A stretch of DNA of 64,000 bases from a virus. Lineage: Duplodnaviria > Caudoviricetes. The position numbers were made by a program, and so were the translations under genes. Numbering within the stretch: position 1 is the stretch's first letter; the number at the start of each line of letters is the position of its first letter. The notes under the pieces were generated by a model, which saw only the letters and a program-made list of their open reading frames with translations, searched no databases and was not told the DNA's origin. This document shows positions 3,366 to 64,000 of the stretch, piece after piece. The DNA lies in IMG/VR virus record IMGVR_UViG_3300028797_000093, one strand, 5' to 3'.

Positions 3366-3367
3366 AG

Positions 3368-3410: not shown

Positions 3411-3460
3411 TATAATGAAGATAAGCCTTGTTATCTATAGATATTATTATACAATCATCA

Positions 3461-4402: not shown

Positions 4403-4406
4403 AAGA

Positions 4407-4434
4407 AAGAGGTAGACCAAAAGATCTACCTCTT
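4407..4434 (-). terminator. gyrB terminator abutting cassette array 1
   Basis: aagaggtaga-ccaaaaga-tctacctctt stem-loop followed by TCTTTTTATT on the minus strand. Confidence 0.8.
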
Positions 4435-10971: not shown

Positions 10972-11093
10972 AAAAAGTAACTCCTCTTATTCTCAGATTG
11001 ATTATTTTTAAGTTATTTAAGATATATTATGTAATTAAATATAAATATAAATGGGTGATAGAGCACTAAACTCTATCACCCATATAGTTTGTT

Positions 11094-11726: not shown

Positions 11727-11805
11727 ATCAACATTTTCCTTTCTTTAATTACATGATTTAATAGAATTAGACTCTATTTAAATGTTAAAATCAATCTTAT
11801 ATAAA

Positions 11806-14800
11806 CTATTTTACCATCATTAATTCGCTAGAACCATATAATGCATAAACACCCTCACTAATATAGTTCCATTCGGTACCATAATTAGTTGTGGTTAGAT
11901 CAATTTCTTCATCTGGATTATAGATTGCACTCGGAACCCTAATATAAAGTCCAGAATTACAATCTTTAAACCAAGCATTATCTGCTACAGAACATTTGTC
12001 TATAGATGATACAAATCCAAATTCTACATATGACAAACTGGTACATCCACTGAAGATGAGATTACCAAGATTATTAATACCTATCATGGTACTATTAGGA
12101 GCCTGGAATGCAGCATACAATAGATCTACACAGTTTGCGAATGCACTAGATTCTATTTCATTAATATTATTTGGAATATAAATTTCAACCAATCCAGATC
12201 CAGCAAATGTATTTTCTTTTATGGTTGTAAGATCTACATTGGTAGGAATATGAATAGAAGTAAGGGAAGCGCAACCATAGAAAGCTTTCTCTCCAATATA
12301 AGTAATATTATCAGACAACTCAATATATTCAAGAGCTATACATCCACTAAAACATTCTAATCCAAGATTAGTTATGCTGTTAGGAAGTACAACACTAGTG
12401 AGACTTGTACAACCCTCAAACATAGTTTGAGAAATAGATGTTAAACTATTAGAAATTAATATACTTGCAAGAGATGTACATCCTCTAGCTACACTAATAC
12501 CAATAGCCATTACACTATTAGGAATGGTTAGACTAGTGAGATTGACACAATCTTTAAATGCCCCATCCCCAATAGTTAATACTCCCTTATTAATAGATAT
12601 AGTAGTAGCACTACATCCAGAGAATGAATAATCTCCTATATCATATATATTAATACCTAGACTGATACTATTGATACCGTCTAGATTTCTAAATGCATTA
12701 TCTGTTATACCTTTAACAGGATATACTATATTATTTTGTACATCAAAAATTGTATCTGGAATAGTGATAATACCACTTTCAGGAATAGCACTTAAACCAG
12801 ATCCATTAGTACCATCACCAATAAGATAATAAGTTCCGTCATTACTCAGTGTGTAATTCAACTCTGGAGTTGCATATAGTACACTGATAGGAACAGTGAT
12901 AGTATAATCAAAGTAATCACTGTCTCTATAATTAACAATTATTTCTGTAATGTCAGTAGTCAGTAATTCATTAGCATGATTATATGTATAATCAGTTAAG
13001 TATTCAGAACTACCGTCAGTCCAGTGAATCACAATAACCATACCGGCAGGATCAAATTTCTCTGTTGTATAATAGAGAGTTTTATTTGGTGGTTGAACCA
13101 TTTCCATATAAGATACTCTTTCACCATAAGCTGTAACAGTAAAGTTATCAGTAATACTAAAGATAACAACCTGCCCATTTATGTTATTGTAAGAGTATCC
13201 TCTATCTTTCTCTAAAATAACTCCTGTACTATCTATTCTGATAACAATATCTTCAGGAAGAATACTGCCATTTACAGAATAGAGATAGAAGCTATAATCA
13301 GACTCACCAGGATTAATTACAGTCCTGGCATTAGTAGTAAGATTATGAAGATTGTAGGTTCCAAAAATAACGTCAAATCTATAGTCTTGTAGTACAGGAT
13401 ATACATAAGTATTTGTTGTATCATTAGCATATCTTGTATTACTGGTAAGACCTTCAGATTTAGCAGCTATATTATCATGATAAGAGAATGTAGGAGCTGG
13501 ATTTTCATGTGTATTGTAAGGAACCAGAGTATTTTCAATATAGAATTCTCTAATTAATTTTACTGTAGCTTCAATGAATTTATTATTATTTGCAAATGAG
13601 TCGATATCATCCATATTAATAGCATCATAATCGAATACTGTCAGTTTTTGATTAGATGTTGTAGACATATCGTTATACAACCAATATACAAACTCAGACA
13701 TACCAGATCCATAGTTATTAAGAGTAAGACTATCATCTATATAATAACTTGTACCAGTACTTGCATATCTATGTCTGTATGCTAGTTTTTCGATAATATT
13801 CAGTATATCTTCTTTACTCAATCCGACTTTAATTATATATTTCATAAACTCATCATCCGTAATGGTTTCGAGTTCATTAGAATCTATATAAGTGTCAAAT
13901 CTGGACTGTAAAGTTGATGGAATATATTTTACAATAGAAATATTATTATAAGATATAGTTCCAGTATTATTAGGATCTCTAATGGCTAATCTATCAGGAC
14001 CGATTTTTTCAATCCAAGATTGAGGGATCTTCTTTCCATCAGAGAATACCATATACATCTCACTATTGAAAGTATAATGAAGATCTTTTTTAGCTTCATA
14101 AGATATATCAAATATAACTGTACCATCCTGATACTCTGCTCTTTGTTGAAACTCAACAGTTTGCATAGACATAGGAACAAAAAATACAGCTACATAAGCA
14201 CCTTGAGGAATATCAAAAGTAAAGAATATTTTTCTCTTATAATATGGAGCATTGTAATCATTAGGAATACTTACCCTATACTGATCAGATGATATATATC
14301 TATAATCAGTATGTGTATTACCAGATTTATTTGCTATAAATACTAAGTATCTAGAAGAATCATCACAATACTTAAACAAGTCATTGTTATAAATATCCTC
14401 TAGAACTATACTATTCATATCATTATCTATAGCACCATAATCTCCTGTAGGAGCATAATATTGAAATTGATGATACATAAATCTATTATTGGATACGATA
14501 GTAAGATCTGTATCATATAGACTACTATCTTCCAGTTCTATATTTATATATTCTTGATCAAGCACAAGCATAGAATAATCATTGGCTGTAATCCCATCAA
14601 TTAAATTAGGACCACTGATCAATTTCCAACTTGTACTATTATCAGTGCTAGGTTTAATCTCATTAAACAATGCTTCTTCAGCATCATATACGTCTCTAAT
14701 ACAGAGTAGAATTCTATAAGATGATGCATTGACACTTACACCATTTACATATCCATTATTATTCAAATAATAAAAGTCACCCTTAGCAGCAGCTGGTGTG

Positions 14801-21236: not shown

Positions 21237-22853
21237 TTACATCACCTTTAGCCTTTCATATTCCTTTTTTCCTATAATGGGTAGAGCCCATACTTCAGGA
21301 ATATTTAGTTTAAATTCTTTATCACCTTTTTTTCTAAAGTAATAGTAAGTAGCCATTACTCTAGCTTTATGCATCTCACAAATAAAAGTAGCTCTTTTAT
21401 CTGGAGTTCCATATATCTCATAATTATATCCAGAGCACCAAGCACAACCAGATGCTATAGGGCAATAAAAACATAGATCTGTACTCTGAGTACGTCTATC
21501 AATCTTTGCCATACAATCAATTCTAGCACAGTGCTCTGGAGTACAATTAATACCATCCTTTAGATTTCCGATAATATATGGTTCTTGGTCCTTACCAATA
21601 GCATTTTCCATATATCTAATACAAGGATACATATCTCCTTTATAATCCATTGCCAGCATTAAACCAAGTCCACCACACCAGTTTTGTAATTCGTTCTCTG
21701 GTAATGGTTTTCCTATATAATTATCAAACATTGAGATGTAAATATCATTAAGATGATTATTCTCTTCTAACCAGTCTACTAAATTTTTCAATTCATTATA
21801 AAGAATAGTAGCGTGTTCTGGTTCCCAACCTTTTTCATATACACAATTCATCATAATATCTTTATAATCATTCTCTATTAAAGATTTAACTGCTTCTGAT
21901 AAATATATAATATTATCAGGTGAAAGAGTAACTTTACTTTCTATATTTTTACCTGTTTTAGCAGTATAATCTTTTACAGCTGCCATGGCTCTATCATATG
22001 TAGGATTACCAAACTTATCTATTCTACAAGAGTCATGTAGTGTTTTATTACCATCTATAGTCACACCATAACTAAGGTGATTTTTATGAAGTCTTACAAA
22101 TTCTTGGAATTCTGGTTCAAAGTAGAGTAGTCCATTCGAAGACATAGAAATCATAAAATTAATAGCCCATCTATGTTTCCTTTTAAAGACTTCTCCTATG
22201 AAATATTTACAAATCTTAGACATTACATCAGTACAGAGAAGAGGCTCTCCTCCTATAAATTCTAAAACACATCCTAAAGCTTTATTAGCATTTATATATG
22301 AACTAACTCTTTCATCAGAGTTAAGAATTAAATCAATAAATGTCTTAGCAGTTTCAAATGACATTTTATGATTGCCCTTATCATGTTGATAACAATAGGT
22401 ACATCTCATATTACAGTCATCTGTTAACTGAAGAGTGATGTTTCTACAAAAATTTCCACCTATTTTCATAGGTCCATTATTTTCATAATCGTCATATAGC
22501 ATTGCTAGTTGATTACTAAAATCTATAGGACGATTTCTTGCTGTAATTTTATATCCATTTAAGACAATACAACTAAATCCAAAATTTATATCCCAAGGAG
22601 CATCTTTTATTTGATCTTTATACATATCATATATTGATTCCATACAGAAATCAAATGATAGTATAGCTTCATTTAATTTATTTTCAAAATATTGATAGGA
22701 GTCATTCCATTCTTCATCTGTGAAGTTGGTAAAACTCCTATCAATAGTATTCATAAGATCTATCAGTCTATACTTTTCATAGTATAATCTATTTACATAA
22801 CTATTTAAAGATTCCGGTATGCTGATAATATTTGGATTATTAATGTCCACCAT
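21237..22853 (-). CDS. Radical SAM/SPASM peptide maturase, CXXX-repeat target type
   Basis: CNMRCTYC (CxxxCxxC), FIGGEPLL, SPASM cysteines CGG...YPC...CFYCPIASGCAWC...C; start set at MVDINN (22853) after AAAGGA. Confidence 0.88.
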   Translation of the reverse strand: MVDINNPNIISIPESLNSYVNRLYYEKYRLIDLMNTIDRSFTNFTDEEWNDSYQYFENKLNEAILSFDFCMESIYDMYKDQIKDAPWDINFGFSCIVLNGYKITARNRPIDFSNQLAMLYDDYENNGPMKIGGNFCRNITLQLTDDCNMRCTYCYQHDKGNHKMSFETAKTFIDLILNSDERVSSYINANKALGCVLEFIGGEPLLCTDVMSKICKYFIGEVFKRKHRWAINFMISMSSNGLLYFEPEFQEFVRLHKNHLSYGVTIDGNKTLHDSCRIDKFGNPTYDRAMAAVKDYTAKTGKNIESKVTLSPDNIIYLSEAVKSLIENDYKDIMMNCVYEKGWEPEHATILYNELKNLVDWLEENNHLNDIYISMFDNYIGKPLPENELQNWCGGLGLMLAMDYKGDMYPCIRYMENAIGKDQEPYIIGNLKDGINCTPEHCARIDCMAKIDRRTQSTDLCFYCPIASGCAWCSGYNYEIYGTPDKRATFICEMHKARVMATYYYFRKKGDKEFKLNIPEVWALPIIGKKEYERLKVM

Positions 22854-22876
22854 GAGTCCTTTATCCTTTCTATCTA

Positions 22877-23893
22877 TTAGGTAGTATAAGCAACAGGTAC
22901 ATGTACCCATTTATCGGTTGCATTTTTATAATACTTTAAACCACCTGTAGTGGCAGTTGTATCAATCCATAATATACTAGTATTTGTAGGAGCAGTAGTT
23001 CCAGCTTGCCAAACTGTACTAGGTCCCTGAGGACCAGTCGGACCTGTAGCACCTGTTGCACCTTTAGCACCTGTCGGACCTGTTGGACCAGTCGGACCTG
23101 TTGGACCAGTGGGACCTGTCGGACCTGTTGGACCAGTGGGACCAGTAGCACCCGTTGCACCTTTAGCACCTGCAGCGCCATTAGCACCCGCAGCACCAGT
23201 TGGACCTGTTGGACCTGTAGGACCAGTGGGACCAGTAGCACCCGTTGCACCTTTGGCACCTGTCGGACCTGTAGCTCCTTTAGGACCTTGAACACCTTGC
23301 TCACCAGCAGGACCTGTAGGGCCTACAGCAGGAACTTGGATTATTGTTGTAGTACCAGTAGGGCCTGGTATACCTTGAGGACCAGTTTGACCAGTAGGAC
23401 CCATCTTACCAGTAGAACCAATAGCTCCAGTAGGACCTTGTCTGCCCGTTGGACCTGTTGGGCCTTGTCTGCCCGTTGGACCTGTTGGACCTAAGTTACC
23501 TTGAGGACCTGTTGGACCTTTAGCTCCCATTGCTCCAGTAGCACCAGTAGGGCCTATTTTACCCGTTGCACCTGTTGGACCTAAGTTACCTTGAAAACCA
23601 GTAGGACCCATCATACCAGTAGGACCAATAGCTCCAGTAGGGCCATGAGCCCCTTGGGGACCAGTAGGACCCAATGAACCAGTCTGACCAGTAGGTCCAG
23701 GACCACCAGTAGGACCCAATGCACCAGTGGGTCCAGCAGGGCCTATAGGACCACTATCGAAAGGAACAATATTACCATTTCCATCAGAAGCATATATAGT
23801 TTTATTTTCATAATCTACTAATAATTCTCTTGGTACAGCTTTATCTCTATCCTTATATTCCAAAGGTCTAATAGGAAATCTTCCTGAAGACAT
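22877..23893 (-). CDS. Collagen-like (Gly-Pro-Thr-rich) fibre protein
   Basis: About 240 aa of G-X-Y repeats dominated by GPT/GAT with one interruption; C-terminal [12 protein letters not shown] motif typical of phage fibre/minor structural proteins; late motif at 23935-23946. Confidence 0.85.
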
Positions 23894-24666: not shown

Positions 24667-24737
24667 TACTATAATATATAATTAAAAATTATTAGAATAA
24701 CAGCTGGAGTTATTATACTCCAGCTGTTTATTATATA

Positions 24738-30700: not shown

Positions 30701-31024
30701 TTAGATATCAATAAAGTATAGATCAGTACCAAAGTACTTATAATCCATAATAATAACTTCTTCTTTATTTACATCAAAGTTACCAGCAATAATAAATTTA
30801 GCATCTTCAATATAACCATCAATATCAGAATGGTCATTATCAAGACCAATAATTTCATCTCTGATCAGTTTTAATTGATCAATACGATAATGAACATAGA
30901 TATATTTCTTATCCGATTTAATTATCTTAATCATATCTTGTTCTACAATATTATTATCAACACCGATGTGTACCATATCCGTTTTTGGATACTTCAATCC
31001 GTCATGTTCAATAATATGTATCAT
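30701..31024 (-). CDS. Hypothetical protein
   Basis: 107 aa, overlaps rtcB stop (ATGA). Confidence 0.7.
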   Translation of the reverse strand: MIHIIEHDGLKYPKTDMVHIGVDNNIVEQDMIKIIKSDKKYIYVHYRIDQLKLIRDEIIGLDNDHSDIDGYIEDAKFIIAGNFDVNKEEVIIMDYKYFGTDLYFIDI

Positions 31025-32139
31025 GCTTTACCTCCTGCTTTGAAATTATATATAGGATGTAAGATATCTGTTACTTCTACAGTATCTTTGATGTTCTCTA
31101 ATACATAATCTAAACTTCTATATGCAAAAGGAGATTCATCAAGAGTAGAAGCATCTATAGAAGTACTATATACTCCCTCCATACACTTCTTAAAAGCAGA
31201 TACTGTGAACTGCTCTTTTGTTTCTTTTCTGCTATAAAGTCTACCAGCTCCATGAGGAGCAGAATAGTTCCAATCTTTATTTGCTTTACCTTTACCAAGT
31301 ATTACCCCATCTTTCATATTGATAGGAATAATAACTTTATCTGTATAATAAGCAGATATAGCACCTTTTCTAATAGTATATCTATTATGATATAGATCTA
31401 TATAGTTATGAGGACAAGAATATACATCATTAGAATCATATTTCCATTTCATATTACTGCATATCTCATCAATAATAGCATCTCTATTATATTTAGCATA
31501 AGTTCTAAGATAACAAACATCTGCTATATAATCATACATCAAATCTCCAGTGAGTGTAGTCATCTCATATGGAATACTAGGATCACATACTTTATGTCCT
31601 TCATTCATATAATAAGTAGCAACTTCTACACCAAGATGTCTACTACCAGAATGAACAACAAGATATACATCACCATCATTAGACTTATCCAACTCTATAA
31701 AGTGATTACCACCACCAAGAGTTCCAATAGACAGTCTAGCTTTATTCAAATCAATATGCTTACGACAACGTAATGAATCAAAATCAAAACAATCAGCATA
31801 TTTGTGTGCTGTAGACCTGATTTTGAATCCAGCAGGCACATTCTCTCTAATGACCTTATCCAGCTTATTGAAATCAATGCCTTTAGGGGCTTTTATTTTA
31901 ACATAAGATACACCACAACCAATATCTACACCTATCAATCCAGGTATAATAGAATCTTTAAAAGTAGCAGTAAATCCTATAGGACCAATCTTACCTGTAT
32001 GAATATCAGGCATTAATCTTATAGAAGATCCTTCAAATACAGGATTATCAACCAATAATTTAACTTGATTTACAGCTGTTTCTTCTACATCATCAGTAAA
32101 AATTTTAGCTATAGTATATTTACCAGCTATCTCTATCAT
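31021..32139 (-). CDS. rtcB: RtcB family RNA ligase
   Basis: MPDIH, GVDIGCG, GTLGGGNHFIE, HSGSR, HNY, RKGA, SAPHGAGR, DESPFAY; start at MIEIAG (32139) after GGAGG. Confidence 0.93.
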   Translation of the reverse strand: MIEIAGKYTIAKIFTDDVEETAVNQVKLLVDNPVFEGSSIRLMPDIHTGKIGPIGFTATFKDSIIPGLIGVDIGCGVSYVKIKAPKGIDFNKLDKVIRENVPAGFKIRSTAHKYADCFDFDSLRCRKHIDLNKARLSIGTLGGGNHFIELDKSNDGDVYLVVHSGSRHLGVEVATYYMNEGHKVCDPSIPYEMTTLTGDLMYDYIADVCYLRTYAKYNRDAIIDEICSNMKWKYDSNDVYSCPHNYIDLYHNRYTIRKGAISAYYTDKVIIPINMKDGVILGKGKANKDWNYSAPHGAGRLYSRKETKEQFTVSAFKKCMEGVYSTSIDASTLDESPFAYRSLDYVLENIKDTVEVTDILHPIYNFKAGGKA

Positions 32140-32246
32140 AATATAAACCTCCAAATATACTTACTAATATAATATATAACCATTTAATAGAATAAAAAAT
32201 AAATCGAGGGGTATTTAAACTAATACCCCTCTACTAATTATATTAT

Positions 32247-33841: not shown

Positions 33842-33905
33842 TCATATTATATATAATTAATTTAAAAATAAATAGGGAGTATTTTCACACTCCCTAACAT
33901 ATCTA

Positions 33906-34808
33906 TCAATATTCTATTCTAGCTAGTCTATTCTCTTTAAGATCATCAGATCTATTTACATATATAAATTCACTATGGCAATTATCACCATTTGCATTCA
34001 TAATATATTCTGTAATAATATTAGTTATATATTTATTTTCTTCATCAAATTTAATATAAGTTATAAATCCAAATATACAAATGTGTTTATATAAAGATAG
34101 TGCATCTTCATCGCCATCAATATAATCCACATCAGTACAAACTATTGGAATAGATTTTGGATTTAAATTAATTATTGTGATTAACCCATTAAATCTTTCA
34201 GAGTTAATTATACTATTATCAATGCTACAACTTCTATATATATTTCCTTGATCTTCATATCCACCATAGATCATAACGTACTCTCCAGGTAGAAGAATTT
34301 CATAAGGAAACAATGGAGTTTTGATACCAGTTAATACATGATTATCATATATAAACTGTTTAATTTGCTTCGTATTATTATCTATTTCTAATAAAGATAC
34401 TGATTCCTCATATTTAAAACAACCAATATTATATTTAAAAGATTCTGGTGATATATACCTAAAATAAATATCAATATCAGAAATCTTTTTATTATCATTA
34501 AATTTTATGAGAATATACTCACAATCTCTAATGATTCTATAATACTTATCTGGATCTTTAGGATCTTCTTCTATTTGTTTAACTTCATGTATATTTAATG
34601 GATGAGAATCAAAATTAACAATTATTATTCTATCTTTTATATATTCTAATTTTAAATCATCGTTAAAACTTTCAATAAAATCTAAATCTGAATCAATTCC
34701 TATATATATTATTTTATATCTATTCGGAAGAATAAGCGAATAATCATATAGATCTGTTTTTAATTTGGTTAAAACATTACCATAATATTCAATTTTCTCT
34801 ATAGACAA
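33906..34808 (-). CDS. Hypothetical protein, two fused family A domains
   Basis: LTKLKTDLYDYSLILP and LTGIKTPLFPYEILLP. Confidence 0.7.
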   Translation of the reverse strand: MSIEKIEYYGNVLTKLKTDLYDYSLILPNRYKIIYIGIDSDLDFIESFNDDLKLEYIKDRIIIVNFDSHPLNIHEVKQIEEDPKDPDKYYRIIRDCEYILIKFNDNKKISDIDIYFRYISPESFKYNIGCFKYEESVSLLEIDNNTKQIKQFIYDNHVLTGIKTPLFPYEILLPGEYVMIYGGYEDQGNIYRSCSIDNSIINSERFNGLITIINLNPKSIPIVCTDVDYIDGDEDALSLYKHICIFGFITYIKFDEENKYITNIITEYIMNANGDNCHSEFIYVNRSDDLKENRLARIEY

Positions 34809-34823
34809 ATACCATCATCCTTT

Positions 34824-35402
34824 TTAATAAGTATTACCTTTATATGAAACAGTTCTAATATCTATACCTTTATTCCTTGCTTTCCACCAAGGATCTAAAA
34901 TTTTTTGTATTTCATCATCATCTGCATTTTCAATACTTTTTAAAGTTCCACCTAATTTATTAAATAGATCAGTAATAGCACTTGCGCAGAAAAATCTATT
35001 TGAATATTCTGTTGTACCACTAGAATTAATATACATCAATATTTCACTTCTAGCATAAACAGAAATAGCAATAGCAAAATATAAATAATTTTTTGTTGAT
35101 GGATAAGTTCCAGATGCTATATCATCATTTTCAATTGATTTCTTAATGACAGAAAACGGTAAATCATAATTTTCCATAAACTCTACAAAAGTTCCTAAAG
35201 TAGTATCACCTTTTAATATTTTTACTCTAAAATCGTGTTTATATTTTTGCAATTCTGACCTTGTTGGAATATGTATTCTAATATATTCAGTAGCTTTTTT
35301 ACTATCTTTTAAATCGACTATTCTACCTTCTGTTAGTATTACATCTCCATTTTCATCAATGTTTTGATTAATTAATTTTATTGGCTCTTTAGGATAAATC
35401 AT
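34824..35402 (-). CDS. Hypothetical protein, paralog family B
   Basis: Paralog of 32247..32804. Confidence 0.7.
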   Translation of the reverse strand: MIYPKEPIKLINQNIDENGDVILTEGRIVDLKDSKKATEYIRIHIPTRSELQKYKHDFRVKILKGDTTLGTFVEFMENYDLPFSVIKKSIENDDIASGTYPSTKNYLYFAIAISVYARSEILMYINSSGTTEYSNRFFCASAITDLFNKLGGTLKSIENADDDEIQKILDPWWKARNKGIDIRTVSYKGNTY

Positions 35403-35433
35403 TTTATTTTCCTTCCTTTACTTTAATATCTTT

Positions 35434-35916
35434 TTAATAATATTCTTTACACAAAAATCTGTTACGTTCTTCTGTATAAGCATCATCAATCAACATATCC
35501 CAAGACGTTCCTCCATCATAAAAATCACCATCACCTCCTACAATATATTCGATTGATGTGTTTTCTATATATCTATTTTCATTAAAATAGATATATATAA
35601 TACTAGAACAACGTGTTATCTTTTTTAATATATTAATACAGTTGTCCTGGGATTCCATATCAGGGAAAATACTTATATTTGGTGTATTATCATGTATAAT
35701 TATAGGATTCATATTGATTACACCAATAGTATTTTCAAATTTATCATTACTGATTAAACTATAATTAAAATCAGTATTGATACTTTGTGGTCCTAAAAAT
35801 TCTAATCCTTTATAAATCATATAATAATTCTCAGGTAAAAGAATCTCATAAGGAAAAAGATGTGACTTTAATCCTGTGAGTATATATCCTTCATAATTTA
35901 TCTTTCTAATTGGCAT
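35434..35916 (-). CDS. Hypothetical protein, paralog family A
   Basis: ILTGLKSHLFPYEILLPENYYMIY motif. Confidence 0.7.
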   Translation of the reverse strand: MPIRKINYEGYILTGLKSHLFPYEILLPENYYMIYKGLEFLGPQSINTDFNYSLISNDKFENTIGVINMNPIIIHDNTPNISIFPDMESQDNCINILKKITRCSSIIYIYFNENRYIENTSIEYIVGGDGDFYDGGTSWDMLIDDAYTEERNRFLCKEYY

Positions 35917-36358
35917 TTTCTTTTTCCTTTCTATGTAAGAAATCTTTTCCTATATATTTATCGTCAGGGTTTATAATAAACTCTACACATGTATATTGAT
36001 CTATTAAATAATATATAGATATTTTTTCTATATATTTATTTTTATTAAAATGAAGTGTTATCATGATAGAAGAATCTATTAATTTCATATACTCTTCTTC
36101 ATTAAATTCATCTATATTAATTTCTTTTCCAAATATTTTAAAATCACCAATTCTATGAACCATCATATCTCCAGTGAATTCTTTTTCATCATTAATCTCT
36201 TCTAAATAAATATCTGTTCTTGTTTTGAAATCTATATTTCCTGTAAAACTGCTATATGTAACAAAATAATTTCCAGGTAAAATTATTTCATATGGATAAA
36301 GATTAGTTGATAAAATTGTATATTCTGTTCCATTATAATATAATCTTTTAAGAGACAT
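35906..36358 (-). CDS. Hypothetical protein, paralog family A
   Basis: LYPYEIILPGNY motif; FTG...V.RIG..K....EI shared with 32833..33336. Confidence 0.7.
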   Translation of the reverse strand: MSLKRLYYNGTEYTILSTNLYPYEIILPGNYFVTYSSFTGNIDFKTRTDIYLEEINDEKEFTGDMMVHRIGDFKIFGKEINIDEFNEEEYMKLIDSSIMITLHFNKNKYIEKISIYYLIDQYTCVEFIINPDDKYIGKDFLHRKEKENAN

Positions 36359-36462
36359 AATATATTCCTTTCTTATTTAATAAACATGATATGATATATT
36401 TATATTATATAATTGATAATAAAAATAATGGGTATAGTCATATAAGACTATACCCATATATT

Positions 36463-38125: not shown

Positions 38126-38494
38126 TTAGAAGCTCTGGACTTCCAGCCCAGGCTTCTTACTCTTGATCATTGTTTCAACCTCATTAACCAAAGAATGTAC
38201 TTTAGAGATAGTTTGAGTCTCTTTGGCAAACTCAAGAACTTCGATCAGTCCATCTCCGATATCAATAATCTTCTCAGGAATTCTAGTATATTCAGGAACC
38301 TCGTTATTAGCAATTTTATTATGAGTAAACTCAAGCAGCTTATTATGATTACTCTTATCATATTCATTACACAGTTTGATAAGACCTCTACGAGAGAAAG
38401 AATTATAAGCAGATACTTTCTCAGCTGAGGTTAGTCTTTTTTCACTTTCCATAATATGAACCTCCTGAAAATATAATAGATACATAAGTATCAA
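38126..38494 (-). CDS. Hypothetical protein
   Basis: ORF; real start probably the internal MESEKR after a GGAGG RBS. Confidence 0.6.
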   Translation of the reverse strand: MILMYLLYFQEVHIMESEKRLTSAEKVSAYNSFSRRGLIKLCNEYDKSNHNKLLEFTHNKIANNEVPEYTRIPEKIIDIGDGLIEVLEFAKETQTISKVHSLVNEVETMIKSKKPGLEVQSF

Positions 38495-38517
38495 TATAAT
38501 ATTATATTATTGATTAA

Positions 38518-38828
38518 AAGTTTAAATGATAAGGCGGCGCCATAGATCCAGCCGGTAGCACCAGAGTAGTAGTAGAGATAAACACAGAAAACGCCGCAAG
38601 TGAGCCCAGAGGCAGAATAACCACCACGACGAGCATAATGAGTACCACTACTTTGAGAAAAATAATTATTATTAATTTAAATGATAGGGCGGCGCCATTG
38701 ACCCAGCTGGTATTACCAGAGTAGAAGAGAGTAACACAGAAAGTACCACAAGCAATACTAATGTTCGAGGCACCACCACGAAGAGCATAATGAGTACCAC
38801 TACTTTGAGCAAAATAATCACAATAAAA
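38518..38828 (-). repeat. Array 2: two DGR variable-region-like cassettes
   Basis: Translate to FYCDYFAQSSGTHYALRGGASNISIACGTFCVTLFYSGNTSWVNGAALSFK and NYFSQSSGTHYARRGGYSASGLTCGVFCVYLYYYSGATGWIYGAALSFKL. Confidence 0.9.
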
Positions 38829-38829
38829 G

Positions 38830-38857
38830 AAGAGATAGGAAATTAATCCTATCTCTT
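38830..38857 (-). terminator. Terminator abutting cassette array 2
   Basis: aagagatagga-aattaa-tcctatctctt stem-loop then CTTTTATT on the minus strand. Confidence 0.8.
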
Positions 38858-38864
38858 AATATTT

Positions 38865-40070
38865 TTAATATCTATTAGGAACAATGTCAGGATAGTTTAC
38901 AAAGACTCCATATTGTTTTCCCTTATAGACAGTAGTCTTGAGCAAATCATCTCTTAGATCTTTGTATTTATCCAGTAGCTTACTCCATTTCTTGAAGTCA
39001 TCAGGACTAATCTTTTCTGTATTGATATAATCATCAATAATAGATACTCTAGTATTGATCTTTCTCATCAGATAGATAGCATCGTCTTCTTCTTCTACAT
39101 TTTTACATCTCATAGCAATCTCGAAGTAATCTTCATCAAATTGCTTCATAGTATTATACTTAAATTTATGAAGAGTACCTTCATTTACAGGAATGATTCT
39201 TACATGTTCTAGTCCTCTAATAAGAGATTTCATATAATTCTGCTCAAGAACACTAGCAGATAGATCAATAGCTTTTTTAAGAGTCTTAATAGCCATGATC
39301 TTACGAGTAGATAGACTACTAAGAATTCTTAGAGTCCATAGCATTGTAGCAAACGGATTATCTACATCTTCATGTAGCCTAAAGTTATTCTTAGCAATCT
39401 TAGAGATAAGATTCTCAAGCTGATCATCAAGATCTGCATAATGAATAAACTCATCTGCTGTAAACTTATCTCCACTATTAGTGAATAGAGAACTATGCTT
39501 AGAGATATATTCTGCTACAGCAAAAGCCATAAAGTCAATAGCATCTTTATCCTTAAGATTTGCAATTACCTGATCATTAGCAGCACAGTAAGCATCTACC
39601 TGAACTCTTAGATCATCTACAGGAGCAGAGCTATTTACTACATGACCAACCTCATATAGAATAACTGCCATCATTTCATTAGCAGTCATTCCAACAAGAG
39701 GACTGAACATCTTACTATCAAACTCTACATCTACAGTCTTAATTCTTACAGGTTTTTCTTCGAATAGAATATCATCAAGAAGATATCTATCCATAAACTT
39801 GTGAGAAGGCATAACCTTAACACCAAAGAACATCTTATCAGTATTCTCAGTTACAATGAAATTCTCACAACTACTATCAGGACCAAATGTCATATCTTGA
39901 GTAGTATGATAATCAAATACAGAATTGATAGCATCCTGCATTTCTTTTCTCTCTTTCATAGAGACTTTTCCTTGTTTCTCTACATAGAGAGCACAACTAT
40001 CACGAAGCCTAGAGAAGTCATTAGAGATTCTCTTAGGAATAAATCCGCCTCTCAATTCTTCTTTATCCAT
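38865..40070 (-). CDS. Probable head-associated protein with degenerate zincin-like motif
   Basis: EMMAVILYEVGHVV (HExxH with first His replaced by Tyr) and downstream ADEF; late motif at 40118-40129. Confidence 0.55.
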   Translation of the reverse strand: MDKEELRGGFIPKRISNDFSRLRDSCALYVEKQGKVSMKERKEMQDAINSVFDYHTTQDMTFGPDSSCENFIVTENTDKMFFGVKVMPSHKFMDRYLLDDILFEEKPVRIKTVDVEFDSKMFSPLVGMTANEMMAVILYEVGHVVNSSAPVDDLRVQVDAYCAANDQVIANLKDKDAIDFMAFAVAEYISKHSSLFTNSGDKFTADEFIHYADLDDQLENLISKIAKNNFRLHEDVDNPFATMLWTLRILSSLSTRKIMAIKTLKKAIDLSASVLEQNYMKSLIRGLEHVRIIPVNEGTLHKFKYNTMKQFDEDYFEIAMRCKNVEEEDDAIYLMRKINTRVSIIDDYINTEKISPDDFKKWSKLLDKYKDLRDDLLKTTVYKGKQYGVFVNYPDIVPNRY

Positions 40071-42102: not shown

Positions 42103-42735
42103 TGATTTAAATGATAGGGCGGCGCCATGAGACCAGTCGGCCGCCCCAGAATTGCGACTGAGAGCAATAAAGAAAACGCCACAAATAGAGCCATTACCAC
42201 AGCCACCATTACGAAAAGCATAACGAGTACCACTATTTTGATAAAAATAATCACAATAAAAACACATAGTTTAAATGATAGGACTGCGCCATAGTTCCAG
42301 CCAGTCCCAGAAGACGAATAGAGTAGAGCAACAGAAGTGAAACCACAATAAAAATCAATAACACAGGAACCACCACGTCTAGCATATGCAATACTCGTAG
42401 CTTTATATATAGATATTTAAGATACTGGTTTAAATGATAGGGCGGCGCCACGATACCAGGAAGTATTAGTAGCAACAACATTTAGAGAAACATAAAAAAC
42501 ACCACATCTAGAACCATCGTTTGAATGACCACTACGAAGACTATAATGAGTACCACTACTTTGATAAAAATAATCACTTATTGGTTTAAATGATAGGGAG
42601 GCGCCACTGAACCAGTAGGTAGAACCAGAGCCGACGTTGAGATAAACATAGAAAGCACCACAAAGGAGCCCAGTGTTCGAGGCACCACCACGAAGAGAAT
42701 AATATGTAGTACTCGTAGCTTTATATATAGATAAA
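42103..42735 (-). repeat. Array 3: four DGR variable-region-like cassettes
   Basis: Units near 42103, 42267, 42426, 42582, e.g. CDYFYQNSGTRYAFRNGGCGNGSICGVFFIALSRNSGAADWSHGAALSFK and SIYKATSTTYYSLRGGASNTGLLCGAFYVYLNVGSGSTYWFSGASLSFKP. Confidence 0.9.
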
Positions 42736-42746
42736 AAAATAAAAGA

Positions 42747-42773
42747 GGAGGGTACTCATAAAGAGTACCCTCC
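42747..42773 (-). terminator. Major capsid gene terminator abutting cassette array 3
   Basis: ggagggtactc-ataaa-gagtaccctcc stem-loop then TCTTTTATTTTTTT on the minus strand. Confidence 0.85.
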
Positions 42774-42820: not shown

Positions 42821-44695
42821 TTATGCCTGATAAGGAGCGTTGGCAGTGTAGTCGTTGTAGTCACTGGTCCCGATGGGATTGGTGTTGGGAACCTCAGACC
42901 GCAGGCCAGTGGGGTTCAGGATCTGGAGACGGCCCTGGACAGGCTGATACTCAACAGTCTTGAACCGCTCGAAGGCATGGATTGCGGGGAGTGCAGGATT
43001 CTTAGCGTTGCGGATTTCGTTGCTGACGTACATCTGGTAATCGTAGATACGATACACGATACGGTCAGTGTTCTTGGGGCAGAGGACAACGATCATGTTG
43101 TTGTTGTCACGGAGCTTGTCGCTGGAGATGAACTGATATACACGATTGTCACTGGAGACAACGGTCTTCTTGAAGTCAAGAGTAGCAGGACCGATGTTGG
43201 CAGGAGTCTCATAGGTGTACTCAGTAGGAGTGATCTTACGGATCAGGTCGGGGCGACCAAAGACGCTGATAGTCATGTTGGGATCGTTCAGTACCTGGAG
43301 CAGGTAGGTCACATGAGTATCAAGAGCGTCCATGAAGGTCTTACGACGCCACTCGACATGGTCGAGAGCATAACCGGCACGAGGAGCGAAGTCGAAGGTG
43401 CTAGCCAGCTTCTGGGTGCTGGGGATATGCATGAAGGACTCGTCAAGGAAAGACTTGATCTTGTCGTCCTTGTAGTTGCCAAGAACGCTCTTAACCAGAG
43501 ACAGGATCTTGGACAGCTGGTTGACCTGATAGAGGGCGGAGATGTCCTTTACCTCTTCAGGGCTGACAGTGGTGTTGATGGGAATAGCTTCGGGGATCTC
43601 CACGATGTCAGTACGAACCTTCCAGCTGACGGAGCAGGTGGGCAGGTTGGCGCTACTGGTGTCGAGACGAGCCTTCAGCTTAACCTTGGTGATAGCACCG
43701 TTGGTGGAAGACAGAACGAAAGCGTTCTTCTTTACGTAACCAGCGATGACATCATCCTTGTGCTGCTCGGCATTGTTGTTATCGAAGTAAGTCAGATGGA
43801 AGCCTTCCATGATCTGACGATCGTACTCGCCGTAAGCAGGAGTGAACTTCATTACTGCAGGATACCAGAGGTCCTTGGAGCCAGCGGTAACAGTGGTGCC
43901 GTCGACATAAGTGCCATCAGGCAGATAGTCACCAACACGATAATACACACCAGGTACATAGACCTCGGAGATGTAGGACTCGATGGAGATGTTGTCACCA
44001 TTGCTGCCACCGATAGCGGTGACACAAACAGGAGTACCATGGCCATCAGGAGTTACAGCAGTGCCACCAACCTTGATGTAGCTGTTGGCATTGGTCTGGT
44101 TGTCAACTTCCTTGATGGGCAGAGTCATCTCGATCTCGGTGAAAGGAGCGGTGCTGTCAATGGCAGCAGTCAGCTTGTACTGCTCCTTGTAGAAGTCGAT
44201 CTCTTCACCAGCTGGAGTAGTCAGGATACGCTGCTCCATGGAAAGAGTGAACTTGGGCTCACGTGCGACAAACTTAGGAATGCCACCATTGTCGAACACG
44301 TTGTTCATCATGATGTTCTTGTGGATGGGAAAGGTCATACCAATGACGGGGTTTACAGCACCAAGAGCTGCATTCTCAAGAATGGCCTCACGGTCATTCA
44401 GATACATCTCTTCTGCATCCTCGCACAGGTCTTCCAGTTCCTCATGAGTGATCAGTCCAGCCTCAACCTCAGGCTGATACAGCTGGGCAACACCCTCTAC
44501 AAAGTAGTTCTTCAGAGCATTGTCAGTACTCTTCAGCATCATAGCCTTGTAGGGCTCGGAGAATACGTCGATTCCAGCTTCATGAAGCATGGACTCGCAC
44601 AGATTCTTATACTCTTCAGCATACTTGCGAATGGGATCCTTGGAATAACCACGGCCCATGTTCGCAGTGCTAGCACGATTACCAACACTAGGCAT
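42821..44695 (-). CDS. Major capsid protein precursor (jumbo phage type)
   Basis: 624 aa; very strong C-ending codon bias; late promoter motif and strong terminator; acidic N-terminal propeptide-like region ending near ILE|NA; surrounded by head-like genes. Assignment from context, not a unique motif. Confidence 0.72.
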   Translation of the reverse strand: MPSVGNRASTANMGRGYSKDPIRKYAEEYKNLCESMLHEAGIDVFSEPYKAMMLKSTDNALKNYFVEGVAQLYQPEVEAGLITHEELEDLCEDAEEMYLNDREAILENAALGAVNPVIGMTFPIHKNIMMNNVFDNGGIPKFVAREPKFTLSMEQRILTTPAGEEIDFYKEQYKLTAAIDSTAPFTEIEMTLPIKEVDNQTNANSYIKVGGTAVTPDGHGTPVCVTAIGGSNGDNISIESYISEVYVPGVYYRVGDYLPDGTYVDGTTVTAGSKDLWYPAVMKFTPAYGEYDRQIMEGFHLTYFDNNNAEQHKDDVIAGYVKKNAFVLSSTNGAITKVKLKARLDTSSANLPTCSVSWKVRTDIVEIPEAIPINTTVSPEEVKDISALYQVNQLSKILSLVKSVLGNYKDDKIKSFLDESFMHIPSTQKLASTFDFAPRAGYALDHVEWRRKTFMDALDTHVTYLLQVLNDPNMTISVFGRPDLIRKITPTEYTYETPANIGPATLDFKKTVVSSDNRVYQFISSDKLRDNNNMIVVLCPKNTDRIVYRIYDYQMYVSNEIRNAKNPALPAIHAFERFKTVEYQPVQGRLQILNPTGLRSEVPNTNPIGTSDYNDYTANAPYQA

Positions 44696-59387: not shown

Positions 59388-61196
59388 TTAGGTAGCTGCG
59401 ATAGCTCCGAGCTGATGCCGTGTAAAAAGCAGTTCATCTGCAGTGGCAGACTCAGCTTCAATCTTAGTTCCACACTTAGGACATGTGCACTCAGGAACCT
59501 GATAGGTAATAATAATATTATCATTATCCATTTTCCTGATATGACCCAATAGAGTAATATATTCATCAGAGGAAAGAGAATTGATGATATTATAACATAC
59601 TCTAATCTTATTGGCAATAGTCTTAGTCTGATCGTTTGCTACAGGCTTAAAGTCTACTGGAATAAGCTCTTCATTTTCTCCATCAATGAAGTAAATCTCA
59701 TCAATGAAAGAATAAATATCAATTAGGTCAGCATACTTCTCCAGGAATTGCTGACTTAGAGATGCAGCCTCAATAACAACAGACCAAATTGTTGGCATAG
59801 TGAGACTTACAGCATAATTATCAGAGATCTGAACTAGATCATTTTCAATCTCGTGATTTCTCGTTGTAGTATCATGCTCAAAGATCTTCTTTACAAGACT
59901 TTCAGCATCATCATTTACATACTTAATCATATCATCAATATTAATATCTGCAATAAAAGTATGTTTACACTTTGGATTAGTGCATTCTCTATTCATAAAG
60001 TTATTTTTTCCAAAGGTAGCTTTATAAATGCAAAAATAATAATGCTCCAGATCATGATATGGAGTGGTCTTAAGCCAAGCTTCAAACTCAGGCTTATTGT
60101 TATCAATAATATGATCATAGATAATTCTATAGATATCTCTGTAAGTATTCAATCTATTTCTATTGCTATTTCTAGGATCAAGTTTAATAATCTCAGTACC
60201 ACTGATAGCACTACAAGAGATAGATCTCCTAGATACAGGAAGTACCCAGTCAGCAATATTAGTCTCTGCCTTAGTAATCTTCATAATAGAACTAATACTG
60301 ACAGGCTTCTTCTTAATCTTAAACCTCTCTAGATCAAATTTCTTAATTGGATTAATATTGTTCTTGATCTGAGTCTTGATCTCATCGACAACTTTCTGTC
60401 TATCTTCTTCAGACATATCCTCAAGATCAGGAGCATCAGGAGTTTCATCTTCATCAGAAGAATATGAATCCCCATCTTCTTCATCTACATCATCTTTAAA
60501 GATATCATCTTCCTCATCGGCAAGATCTTCAAGAATAGTATTTGTACTATTCTTATATTCTTCATATTCATCTTTCTCTTCAACAGGAGCTACAGGTTCC
60601 TGTTTCTTTTCTTCTACAACAGGAGTTTTCTTCTTAGAGCTATGAGCCCTTACAAACTCCTCATCAACATCATCTTCGTTCTCTTCAAGAGAACCTGCTT
60701 CATCATCCTTAAAGAGATCATCAAATTCAGAAGATGTTTGTCCTTCAGGAGCATCAGGTACATTGGAAGCACCATCAACAGGATCTACACCCATTTCAAA
60801 TGCTTCTTCCTGAGCTTCCTCAATAATTCCTTCATGAAGTTCTTGAGTCTGTCTCTTTGTTCTCTCAAGAGCTTCATCCAGCTGATCAAACAGAGCATTC
60901 TCCATTGTAGGACCCTGGAGATCTTCATCCTTAGCAGCAAATACTTTAGGATTAATAGGATTCAGGTCAGCAAGACTGATAGCTTTCTGACTTGGAACTG
61001 ACTGAGTGACAGGTACAAAAGTCTTAAACTCATTAGCTGCCTTTTCAGCAGCTTCTTCTACTTTCTTCTCAAGATCCAGCTTAGGAATATCTTCTACGTT
61101 ATCATATACTGGTGATCTACGAACACCTCTATATTCCTTAGCTGCTTTTTCAGTTCTATTGTCCGATTCTGGTGGTGTAATTTTCTTTGTTGCCAT
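59388..61196 (-). CDS. Baseplate hub assembly-like protein with acidic N-terminal half
   Basis: Zn ligands CTNPKC and CPKC near the C-terminus as in T4-like hub assembly proteins; next to a gp25-like gene. Confidence 0.5.
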   Translation of the reverse strand: MATKKITPPESDNRTEKAAKEYRGVRRSPVYDNVEDIPKLDLEKKVEEAAEKAANEFKTFVPVTQSVPSQKAISLADLNPINPKVFAAKDEDLQGPTMENALFDQLDEALERTKRQTQELHEGIIEEAQEEAFEMGVDPVDGASNVPDAPEGQTSSEFDDLFKDDEAGSLEENEDDVDEEFVRAHSSKKKTPVVEEKKQEPVAPVEEKDEYEEYKNSTNTILEDLADEEDDIFKDDVDEEDGDSYSSDEDETPDAPDLEDMSEEDRQKVVDEIKTQIKNNINPIKKFDLERFKIKKKPVSISSIMKITKAETNIADWVLPVSRRSISCSAISGTEIIKLDPRNSNRNRLNTYRDIYRIIYDHIIDNNKPEFEAWLKTTPYHDLEHYYFCIYKATFGKNNFMNRECTNPKCKHTFIADINIDDMIKYVNDDAESLVKKIFEHDTTTRNHEIENDLVQISDNYAVSLTMPTIWSVVIEAASLSQQFLEKYADLIDIYSFIDEIYFIDGENEELIPVDFKPVANDQTKTIANKIRVCYNIINSLSSDEYITLLGHIRKMDNDNIIITYQVPECTCPKCGTKIEAESATADELLFTRHQLGAIAAT

Positions 61197-61203
61197 ATCC
61201 TTG

Positions 61204-61590
61204 TTATCCTCCCATGATTTCGTTTAGAGATCTATAGTCTGTATTAATTCTAAAAGCTTCATCTACAGAAATCATATATACAGTCTTATTGAAAGTAGCT
61301 GTGATATAATACATTCTTTGAAACTCTCTTACATTAATAACTATACCAGTCAATACTGGTATATACTTAGTAATCTGATTTTGGAAATCTCTCTGCAGTT
61401 CATCTGCATGTCCCAAAAAACTATATCTATATTTAGATACAATACCAACACCCATTTCAGGATGTGTATCAAAAGTATTAGGTTCTAACAGTAGTAATTG
61501 AACCAATAATTTACAAACTGCATCAGGACCTGATTTAACCTCAGGTTCCAGAAAAGTGTTTACAGATAATGTATATTCATTTAGAGCCAA
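61204..61590 (-). CDS. gp25-like baseplate wedge protein
   Basis: 128 aa; LLLLEPNTFDTHPEMGVGI resembles the gp25 pattern; late motif at 61622-61633. Confidence 0.55.
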   Translation of the reverse strand: MALNEYTLSVNTFLEPEVKSGPDAVCKLLVQLLLLEPNTFDTHPEMGVGIVSKYRYSFLGHADELQRDFQNQITKYIPVLTGIVINVREFQRMYYITATFNKTVYMISVDEAFRINTDYRSLNEIMGG

Positions 61591-61729
61591 TTGAATATCA
61601 ACTCCTCTCTTCTAATTATATTACCAAATTGTTTAGTGAATTAAAAAATTATAAGAGATAAAAATAATATATGAAATTAGTATTAGATTATATATCATAA
61701 GATAGAAATTTAATAATGGAGGAAACGTA

Positions 61730-62575
61730 ATGAATGATTTAACTGATAATATTAAACAGACATACGTTTGTACAGAATGTAATCATAGTGTATCTTTTAA
61801 TATCAGTAATAGTTTAAATATAACTGATGAGAATGGCAATGATATTGATCCTAAATATAAAATTGATATTCTTAAAGACTATATTCGTAATGATATTATT
61901 AGTGGAAAATATGTAGATGTATTTTGCCCCAAATGTGGATATTCTATGAAGCCTATTAGATCTAAGTTTATTACTATATATAAAGCTTTTAATAGAAAAG
62001 GATATAATGTAGATACAGATCCGAGTTCTGATACTGTATATTGGTATAACTATAAAGAAAATAAACGGGTTGAAGTTAAAGCAAATATTGTAATTTTCAA
62101 TATTCATGATATTCTATATGATATTTTCTATAGACTATTTTATCTTCCATCATTTGAAAATAATAAAAAGAAGCTTACAGAAGAGAATTTTAAATTCTTA
62201 TATGATGATATTGCCAATGGTTTTTGTAAACCCTTTAAACAAGATCCTAAACATAAAGTAAAATATGATGATCTTATAGAAGGATATATTGAAACGATAT
62301 TAGATATTATGATTGATCACCTACTCAATCATCCTATTAGATTCTTTGAATTGCTTAACTTTAAAGAAGAAGAAGAGTTTAATAATCAGCTCACCCCATA
62401 TAATTATCAACCTCGCATAGAAGAAGATATTATTACTGTAACTTGTGAAACTAATAAAACTCTTCTAGAATTGTGTAAGAAACTTCCTAATCTGAGAGAC
62501 ATAAATGAAGTAGTTGATCTATTCAGGAAGTGGATTCCTATGTATGAAGAAGACTTTAGAAAAGATTATTTCTAA
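61730..62575 (+). CDS. Hypothetical protein with N-terminal Zn ribbon
   Basis: CTEC...CPKCG; GGAGG RBS. Confidence 0.7.
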   Translation: MNDLTDNIKQTYVCTECNHSVSFNISNSLNITDENGNDIDPKYKIDILKDYIRNDIISGKYVDVFCPKCGYSMKPIRSKFITIYKAFNRKGYNVDTDPSSDTVYWYNYKENKRVEVKANIVIFNIHDILYDIFYRLFYLPSFENNKKKLTEENFKFLYDDIANGFCKPFKQDPKHKVKYDDLIEGYIETILDIMIDHLLNHPIRFFELLNFKEEEEFNNQLTPYNYQPRIEEDIITVTCETNKTLLELCKKLPNLRDINEVVDLFRKWIPMYEEDFRKDYF

Positions 62576-62634
62576 TAATAAAAATAAAGGAGTAACCTAT
62601 TATGGTTACCCCTTTATTTTTTCTATATTAAATT

Positions 62635-63024
62635 TTATTTCTTTCTACTGTGGAATAGTCTTCTTAGAAAACTCAGTATATTATTTCTAATATATCTGAT
62701 TTTCTTATCGCTAAAGAATAGTTGTGAATACTTTTCATTTTCTATGTATATGGATACTGTAGAAGGAGAATGGTCAATTACATTAGACACATTGTTGAGA
62801 TTGAATGAAGTTATATGACACATATCTGTATAGTTATTTTTATCACATTCACAAACTATATATAGAGTACGTATCATATAATATTGAAATACTCCATTTT
62901 TGGTCCTTTTATATATCCTCTTAAAAAAGAAATTATCACCATCTGATTTTATCTCATATACATAGTTCATTGAAGATATTCTATTAAGAATATCATTAAT
63001 TTCTTCCCTGGTATAAGTCTTCAA
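62635..63024 (-). CDS. Hypothetical protein
   Basis: 129 aa, TTG start after AAAGGTGG. Confidence 0.6.
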   Translation of the reverse strand: MKTYTREEINDILNRISSMNYVYEIKSDGDNFFFKRIYKRTKNGVFQYYMIRTLYIVCECDKNNYTDMCHITSFNLNNVSNVIDHSPSTVSIYIENEKYSQLFFSDKKIRYIRNNILSFLRRLFHSRKK

Positions 63025-63148
63025 TATGTATATTAAACCACCTTTCTCTTACTACTTATACAGAAATAAGCGATTTGGTGAGTTTATCTATTGCTATTAT
63101 GTTATAAAAAAGAAAGTAATAGACGTTAATCTATTACTTTCTATAATA

Positions 63149-63625
63149 TTACCAAGACATCTTAAATATCATTCCATCCTGCCAAGCTTCAATGAAAGTA
63201 TTAAAGGCTTCTACTCCTTTAAACTTATCATCAAAGTATCTGGCTTGAGGATATTTATCTTTAAAATCAATATATTTCTTCATAGCATTTATCATACCCT
63301 TCTTTGTAGTACAAATACATGTAGTGGGTTTCTTATGATAAAAGAATTTATTAGTAAAGAACCATCCTTGTCTATATCGTACTATATCACAAGCAATATA
63401 TTGCATCTTTCCAAATTCATCATCATATAATGTATTCCAATCTAATTTATCAAGAAGCTTCTTATATCTATGATAAGACTTATACCCCTTAAACATACGA
63501 AGCTCATCACTTTTTATGAGAAATGAACTTTCATTAAGACTCATTATTTCCCAATTAAACAGAGCATCAAAAGAACTAAAGAGTTTATCATACTTAGGTT
63601 TTAAAAGAACCATGTAAGCACTCAT
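63149..63625 (-). CDS. Hypothetical protein, paralog of 63632..63988
   Basis: Shared P...I.T.K..M...K.Y...G...F...W..GM.F.M C-terminus. Confidence 0.65.
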   Translation of the reverse strand: MSAYMVLLKPKYDKLFSSFDALFNWEIMSLNESSFLIKSDELRMFKGYKSYHRYKKLLDKLDWNTLYDDEFGKMQYIACDIVRYRQGWFFTNKFFYHKKPTTCICTTKKGMINAMKKYIDFKDKYPQARYFDDKFKGVEAFNTFIEAWQDGMIFKMSW

Positions 63626-63631
63626 GTTAAT

Positions 63632-63988
63632 TTACTCCTTATACATTTCAAAATACATGCCATTCTCCCATTTAATAGACATAAATTTATCATATATAGC
63701 TCTGCCATCTTCATCATCTAGCAAATAATTCTTAAGAAGTCTACTCATATCTCTCTTACTGGTTCCAATAGCATATTGGATAGGTCTTCTAAAGAATTTG
63801 TTTATGTCAATACCATGTCTCCTATGATGATATTTCATTAGTTCTATTATTTCTATACTACTTGTAATTATTTCATCACCATCATATAGTATATATCTCT
63901 TTGCTACATCATCATTTAACAGAAAACTGGATAGTTTCTGTTCAAGTCTCATATAGGTCTTTTTATGATTAAGCTCTTTTTTAAACAT
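63632..63988 (-). CDS. Hypothetical protein, paralog of 63149..63625
   Basis: Shared C-terminal pattern; may extend beyond the window end. Confidence 0.6.
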   Translation of the reverse strand: MFKKELNHKKTYMRLEQKLSSFLLNDDVAKRYILYDGDEIITSSIEIIELMKYHHRRHGIDINKFFRRPIQYAIGTSKRDMSRLLKNYLLDDEDGRAIYDKFMSIKWENGMYFEMYKE

Positions 63989-64000
63989 AAGAAGATTATT

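Follow-up and report, generated by a model that had tools for sequence, protein, structure and literature searches.

The cassette arrays of this phage begin directly behind hairpins that are most likely the ordinary Rho-independent terminators of unrelated upstream genes. We favour, with a probability of about 0.55, the reading that the arrays sit in the usual accessory-DNA slot of this lineage, running from an older terminator to the next promoter, and that similarity between the T-rich cassette leader and terminator T-tails, together with selection for silence, may contribute to this placement.

The window, by which we mean the whole 64-kb stretch of DNA analysed, belongs to a jumbo-type phage found in rumen metagenomes (31.7% GC). 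Its major capsid protein has 33 relatives with 44-59% identity, encoded on viral contigs of 160-290 kb. Megablast against phage records gave no matches for the window, and the IMG/VR relatives are distant (capsid at most 59% identical), with arrays near the capsid gene in none of them. Other genes of the window encode a topoisomerase II, a 2509-aa ORF, an Rpb1-like RNA polymerase piece, RtcB and a collagen-like tail fibre. The tail fibre has GXY repeats, and its gene (22877-23893) overlaps with the beginning of a co-oriented radical-SAM gene (21237-22910). The RtcB RNA ligase is encoded at 31021-32154, yet there is no tRNA gene within the 64-kb window.

Cassettes, hairpins and the spacers around them

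Twelve copies of a unit of ~150 nt form the three arrays (six, two and four units), all on the minus strand (Table 1). Every unit can be read in one frame as (D)YFYQSSGTHYxxRGG-x6-CGxF-x12-WxxGAALSFKP, with no stop codon among 12 x 48 codons, the chance of an open frame being 0.022 per unit at the base composition of the window. Translation of an array as a single protein was considered and rejected, as the reading frame is kept across 3 of 9 internal junctions, which is the chance level. Some cassettes have a different 5' end, TATATAAAGCTACGAGTA (IYKATSTTY), in place of the YYCDYFYQ leader. This second class is seen in the units at 42582-42725 and 42267-42410 and in L063, L111, L116 and L158; no full-length gene with this junction was found.

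Table 1. Positions of the arrays, of the hairpins and promoter-like sites next to them, and of the surrounding genes
Feature	Position	Strand	Remarks
Array 1, six VR cassettes	3462-4406	-	T-rich leader of the first cassette abuts hairpin 1
Cores of array 1	3462-3605, 3618-3761, 3768-3911, 3926-4069, 4092-4235, 4245-4388	-	
Array 2, two VR cassettes	38518-38829	-	Cores 38518-38661, 38673-38816
Array 3, four VR cassettes	42103-42746	-	Preceded by a 17-nt T-tail
Cores of array 3	42103-42246, 42267-42410, 42426-42569, 42582-42725	-	
Predicted terminator hairpin 1	4407-4434	-	12-bp stem, loop UUUU, dG -21.5 kcal/mol, z -7.2; 5 nt past gyrB stop codon
Predicted terminator hairpin 2	38830-38857	-	11-bp stem, loop UUAAUU, dG -15.9 kcal/mol, z -4.2; 7 nt past stop codon of 401-aa gene
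Predicted terminator hairpin 3	42747-42773	-	11-bp stem with 7 GC pairs, loop UUUAU, dG -22.2 kcal/mol, z -6.2; 47 nt past capsid stop codon
Predicted terminator hairpin of lysozyme-domain gene	3368-3411	+	dG -22.5; closes array 1 on its far side
Spacer after array 2	38453-38517	-	T-run, AT-rich promoter-like spacer, AGGAGG ribosome site; ATG of next gene at 38452; L109 homology resumes here
Promoter-like motif AATTATATATTATAA	42063-42077	-	Directly after array 3, before next gene
Further AATTATATATTATAA sites	24669-24683, 33844-33858, 36400-36414, 1989-2003		
gyrB-like gene	4440-6950	-	Pfam DNA_gyraseB, Toprim, HATPase_c, DNA_gyraseB_C; upstream of array 1
401-aa gene, no family matched	38865-40070	-	Orthologs in L165-L169 and L109; upstream of array 2
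Major capsid protein gene	42821-44695	-	phrog_20655; upstream of array 3
Lysozyme-domain gene	2046-3365	+	Phage_lysozyme2; convergent to array 1
ORFs of block 33857-36412	33906-34808, 34824-35402, 35434-35916, 35906-36358		

The cassettes are related to the end of a tail protein. The unit aligns with the final 55 residues of phrog_5302 ('tail protein', positions 490-544 of 548) and also with the C-terminus of full-length proteins of 316-532 aa, such as P0135; cassette repeats occur in 571 protein clusters. On two contigs (L001 and L008) a gene with such a VR C-terminus is followed by an adenine-rich template repeat and then by a reverse transcriptase, which is the classical DGR layout. The cassettes of the window have 22 hypervariable codons, with entropies of 1.38, 1.47 and 0.82 at codon positions 1, 2 and 3, and this variability is the NNY mark of adenine mutagenesis. 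Moreover, a contig of the same sample series (L143) has two full-length genes, the second with a VR that is 96.8% identical over 155 nt to the window cassette at 4094-4247. All cassettes retain the gene-specific 3' end ATCATTTAAACCA, one of them running through the stop codon, and in relatives the homology between template and variable repeats (TR/VR) stops before this end. It follows that the cassettes are DNA copies of the gene end (the DGR VR) and not template cDNA; retro-insertion of such cDNA is not supported, since the gene-specific end is kept up to the stop codon and a TR-type end is absent. Twenty ORFs of the window compared with Pfam and 10 compared with PHROGs, a selection without the 2509-aa ORF, included no reverse transcriptase.

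The preliminary description had stated that all three arrays begin at a strong hairpin closing an unrelated gene, which was confirmed, with 0-17 nt between hairpin and array in the three cases and all of them on the minus strand. Each hairpin combines a stable GC-containing stem, a short loop, a T-tract and a location after a stop codon, the features of Rho-independent terminators, and the T/U-tract directly 3' of the stem reads TCTTTTTA, CTTTTATT and TCTTTTAT, respectively. Most likely they are the ordinary terminators of the upstream genes, termination itself being predicted from sequence. In capsid orthologs without cassettes, a hairpin occurs at the same post-stop site in 17 of 17 cases (13 by the automatic criterion and four by eye in the printed sequences), and in the cassette-free orthologs of the 401-aa gene one is found right past the stop codon in all five. 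Empty sites, that is, terminators without cassettes, are thus present in related phages, and as the orthologous sites of phages without arrays already have a terminator, the hairpins are ancestral and older than the arrays. Families of hairpins specific to arrays were also considered and rejected, as terminators without an array have the same types of stem: GAGGTAG-/GAGATAG-type hairpins are found at 45461, 49486 and 54466 of the window and at the capsid terminators of L041, L044 and L046. Units inside the arrays have no hairpins. tRNA or Rfam elements at the arrays were likewise discarded, with no Rfam family at the gathering score and no tRNA in the window.

In arrays 1 and 2 the terminator T-tract had been described as running into the cassette. 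The junction is indeed direct, with the stem passing straight into TCTTTTTATTGTGATTAT (array 1) or CTTTTATTGTGATTAT (array 2), but the tract comes from the cassette leader and not from a tail of the terminator; the apparent fusion arises because each cassette unit begins with its own T-rich leader. This leader, TTCTTTTTATTGTGATTAT, corresponds to codons SFYCDY of the full-length tail gene, as seen inside gene 1 of L143. It also occurs at internal junctions of array 3 in L070 and follows other hairpins, in L062 and L150.

On the opposite side, each array stops at a promoter-like spacer, with 65-75 nt left to the following start codon, so the non-array spacer is as long as in array-free gaps and contains no extra DNA. 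The AT-rich motif AATTATATATTATAA, a candidate promoter of the phage, has 15 sites in the window when up to two mismatches are allowed, against 5.7 expected; they lie mostly right after terminator T-tails and ahead of gene starts, and none is inside the arrays. Moreover, the arrays have no Shine-Dalgarno sequence with a start codon on their sense strand, where 4.4 would be expected (p = 0.012). The proposal that placement behind terminators keeps the cassettes silent fits these data, and, as judged from such signals, the arrays would be untranscribed.

Array loci and relatives

Further arrays were obtained by a DNA pattern scan of metagenome contigs, and all counts of loci refer to the matches listed. 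Of the 11 distinct array loci among these, nine have a strong hairpin directly before the array, namely the three arrays of the window (with L109 representing the array 2 locus of a relative), L158/L063, L062/L138, L150/L161/L163, L111, L123 and the minus strand of L151. The other two, on the plus strand of L151 and in L116, lie in divergent gaps without a hairpin. In addition, the array of L057 comes directly after a full-length gene, and the start of the array in L120 is lost at the contig end. Contig L158 matches 59656-64000 with 97.9% identity and shows that the same genome has a fourth array, just past the end of the window, which is also behind a hairpin. At all nine hairpin-linked loci among the matches listed the spacing from hairpin to array is 0-27 nt, and the arrays are always past the hairpin, never between it and the stop codon (9 of 9, p = 0.002-0.04).

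The weight of this pattern depends on the null that is applied. When the non-coding positions of the window are counted by strand, 6.4% are 0-27 nt past a hairpin, and under this position-level null three of three has p = 2.6e-4; at the level of gaps, 59% of which have a hairpin, the same count gives p = 0.2. For the 9 of 11 loci among the matches listed, the values are 9e-10, 1.3e-4 and 0.11 under nulls of 0.064, 0.25 and 0.59, respectively. The window has 38 terminator-like hairpins in total, placed after 21 of its 65 genes and present in 24 of the 41 gaps of at least 40 nt, and since they are so common in gaps, the statement that a gap contains a terminator is weak evidence. Chance does not predict, on the other hand, that arrays invariably start in the T-tail and invariably stop at the promoter-like spacer. 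The claim that three of three amounts to a targeting rule has to be divided: the pattern extends to nine of the 11 loci among the matches listed, but a hairpin is not obligatory, as seen on the plus strand of L151, in L116 and in L057. The orientation of the arrays is inseparable from strand bias, because the minus strand carries 56 of the 65 genes of the window and GC skew is uniform. DGR editing is known to favour targets that are co-directional with replication (PMC12875486).

Two of the loci have particular layouts. L151 has two opposed arrays with 11 short-type cassettes each, at 2194-3596 (minus) and 10002-11387 (plus), as well as an AAY-rich template repeat (11775-11918) and a reverse transcriptase gene (12203-13480). 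Its plus-strand array, with no hairpin upstream, sits where the DGR target gene would normally be. An upstream gene of 594 aa in L151 was examined as a truncated tail gene and rejected, being a DnaB-like ATPase. In the second case, L057 (1-1546) and L116 (379-1376) have in common 998 nt with four cassettes, 100% identical in both contigs. In L057 the first shared cassette forms the last part of a full-length tail gene, and in L116 the second unit of a silent array, with the breakpoint at TATTGTGATTAT; either gene and array have truly recombined or the assembly is chimeric.

In three near-complete relatives (199-259 kb) the cassette motif is confined to full-length genes. Together with the array-free orthologous terminators, this indicates that empty sites exist and that the arrays are derived in one sublineage. 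Among the relatives no near-identical pair was found in which one strain has the site empty and the other has it filled, and we therefore infer the exact insertion junctions. A relative with ~88% identity (L109) differs at the array 2 locus, with another hairpin and six short-type cassettes; homology with the window ends there at the stop codon of the 401-aa gene and resumes at the promoter spacer. Hairpin 2 has been replaced along with the array, while four hairpins nearby that have no array (40155, 38101, 36428 and 32206) are conserved at 94-100%. This suggests that an array-linked hairpin may form part of what is exchanged instead of being a fixed ancestral landmark. A block of four genes (33857-36412, 2.5 kb) is also absent from L109, which has a tiny different ORF there, and the block ends exactly at a hairpin T-tail and a promoter-like motif. 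From both differences it follows that accessory DNA of any kind is exchanged at terminator/promoter boundaries.

In a closer relative (L070) the flanks are 94-96% identical to those of the window, and the end junctions and hairpins are identical. Array 3 has four units in the window versus seven in L070, with cores that are 58-81% identical, the two phages differing by internal units and replaced cores. Growth of the arrays by polar addition at the terminator end was for this reason rejected: the differences between window and L070 are internal, both end junctions are kept, and no addition at the terminator end was seen. Array 1 is identical (99.7%) in L061.

Explanations for the placement

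According to our preferred reading, the arrays would be promoterless tandem DNA copies of the 3' end of the tail-protein gene, the DGR variable region. The spacer between a terminator tail and the next promoter would represent a standard slot, similar to PeSL or moron insertions, where ordinary gene blocks may also be gained and lost. Short-homology recombination between the leader and a T-tail could seed an array, whose position may then be kept because nothing was disrupted and the cassettes would remain untranscribed, as for a DNA-level donor library. With regard to seeding, an exact match of at least 7 nt to the leader is found in 11 of 18 array-free terminator tails versus 18.6% of other non-coding 30-mers (p = 8e-5) and 8.7% of coding 30-mers. 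Array-free terminator tails are therefore the most leader-like of the non-coding sites, making recombination between leader and T-tail a plausible route, and T-runs are present at both ends of the arrays. As T-runs are of low complexity in a genome with 32% GC, the microhomology may nevertheless be incidental, which weakens the argument. Consequently, from the earlier proposal that cassettes are inserted by microhomology at hairpin/T-tract sites, the T-rich microhomology survives as plausible (11/18 versus 19%), not so a T-tract belonging to the terminator. Both leader/T-tail microhomology and selection for silence are possible contributing factors.

A more specific scenario, possible in our opinion but rather doubtful, gives the terminator hairpin and its T-tail the role of a landing pad, on which cassette circles or gene-end copies would enter by a leader/T-tail crossover, perhaps aided by replication stalled at the hairpin, with hairpin and array moving afterwards as a module. 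If true, the phage would have a dedicated means of seeding transcriptionally insulated libraries of receptor tips, a new route to recombination libraries.

The joint replacement of hairpin and array between the window and L109, with ~88% identical flanks and conserved array-free hairpins, can also be taken to mean that both form one self-contained mobile module, in which the array carries its own terminator, either via recombination between stop spacer and promoter or via excised circles. In the same direction point the similar GAGGTAGATC-type hairpins and AATAATATA spacers that precede arrays at three loci (window array 1, L062/L138 and L109), and the T-runs flanking arrays on both sides, as a single circle crossover would leave. 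This similarity between hairpins is however generic, because the same types occur at array-free terminators; window and L070 share their hairpins while array cores change; and the orthologous genes had terminators before any array. We regard such a module as unlikely.

A third alternative is that no rule exists: arrays would need non-coding DNA, most gaps hold a terminator, and three of three would be a coincidence. The frequency of hairpins in gaps (24/41), the strand bias of the genes (56/65) and the gap-level p of 0.2 are what this explanation can offer, and it looks quite improbable against the facts that all nine hairpin-linked arrays start at most 27 nt past the hairpin and never before it (p = 0.002-0.04), that the pattern recurs at nine distinct loci in several phages among the matches listed, and that leader/T-tail similarity is enriched.

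Finally, active structure-directed targeting, with a DGR reverse transcriptase and cDNA or a hairpin-recognising recombinase inserting cassettes past terminators in the manner of group IIC introns, would suit the tight spacing of 0-27 nt and constant orientation at nine loci among the matches listed, the kinship of DGR reverse transcriptases with group II intron enzymes, the insertion of group IIC introns after terminators (as cited in PMC3240598), and the reverse transcriptase and template beside an array in L151, but it is very improbable given the gene-type and not template-type 3' end of the cassettes, the lack of an intron or other RNA family in the window and of a reverse transcriptase among the ORFs scanned (which did not include that of 2509 aa), the two arrays without a hairpin and the one that follows a full-length gene, and hairpins that are not of DGR form (AT-only loops, upstream site) and are missing from the units inside arrays.

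How a jumbo phage arranges its DGR-diversified library of spare receptor tips is defined by the placement rule, which also speaks for cassettes that act as DNA and not through expressed products. The rule points to where new arrays arise, and it provides a search rule for more of them: a terminator, a T-rich leader, VR-like repeats and a promoter, in this order.

Comparison with known systems

A tempting but wrong link, that to the DGR target hairpin, can now be removed. In the Bordetella phage BPP-1 this hairpin is located 4-34 bp downstream of the VR and consists of a GC-rich stem of 7-10 bp and a GRNA loop of 4 nt, the sequence upstream being dispensable (Guo et al. 2011, PMC3240598). The arrays resemble a DGR target site in that an inverted repeat adjoins DGR-type variable repeats, but their hairpins are upstream, at least about 150 nt from the 3' end of the first cassette, and have AT-only loops of 4-6 nt and mixed AT/GC stems. 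After each of the two full-length tail genes of L143 the same GC-rich pair of hairpins is found (2893-2935 and 4668-4710, minus strand), with a 7-bp stem and a 4-nt loop followed by an 8-bp stem, which resembles DGR target-recognition hairpins. This 6.6-kb contig has no template or reverse transcriptase within it, and array cassettes are without such GC-rich hairpins. The analogy with the hairpin of DGR retrohoming made in the preliminary description is therefore abandoned, since hairpins of this type are downstream of expressed genes and absent at the arrays.

Group IIC introns, as cited in PMC3240598, insert shortly downstream of intrinsic terminators, and the arrays are like them in position and orientation relative to the terminator hairpin. 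They are unlike them in having no intron RNA, intron-encoded protein or Rfam match, the cassettes being coding gene fragments of 150 nt.

Lambdoid phages carry additional genes known as 'morons'. In T4-type phages, modular shuffling at gene boundaries has been described for promoter-early stem-loop (PeSL) elements (Arbiol et al. 2010, PMC2839356). Like PeSLs and morons, the window has repeated terminator and promoter modules between genes, and, as for PeSLs, its differences from L109 (the 2.5-kb gene block and the segment of hairpin plus array) are bounded by such modules. In contrast with PeSLs, the DNA inserted here is a promoterless tandem array of gene fragments and not a gene with its own promoter; moreover, the short homology seems to be the T-rich leader of the cassette instead of a shared promoter.

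Silent-cassette libraries also serve antigenic variation in bacteria, as pilS does in Neisseria. The vls system of Borrelia is another library of this kind (PMC11499132). Similar to vls and pilS, the phage cassettes are partial copies, apparently promoterless, in which the flanks are conserved and the cores vary, and a near-identical segment is present in a full-length, presumably expressed gene of a relative. Unlike them, they are phage-borne and DGR-diversified (NNY), in arrays dispersed at many loci behind terminators.
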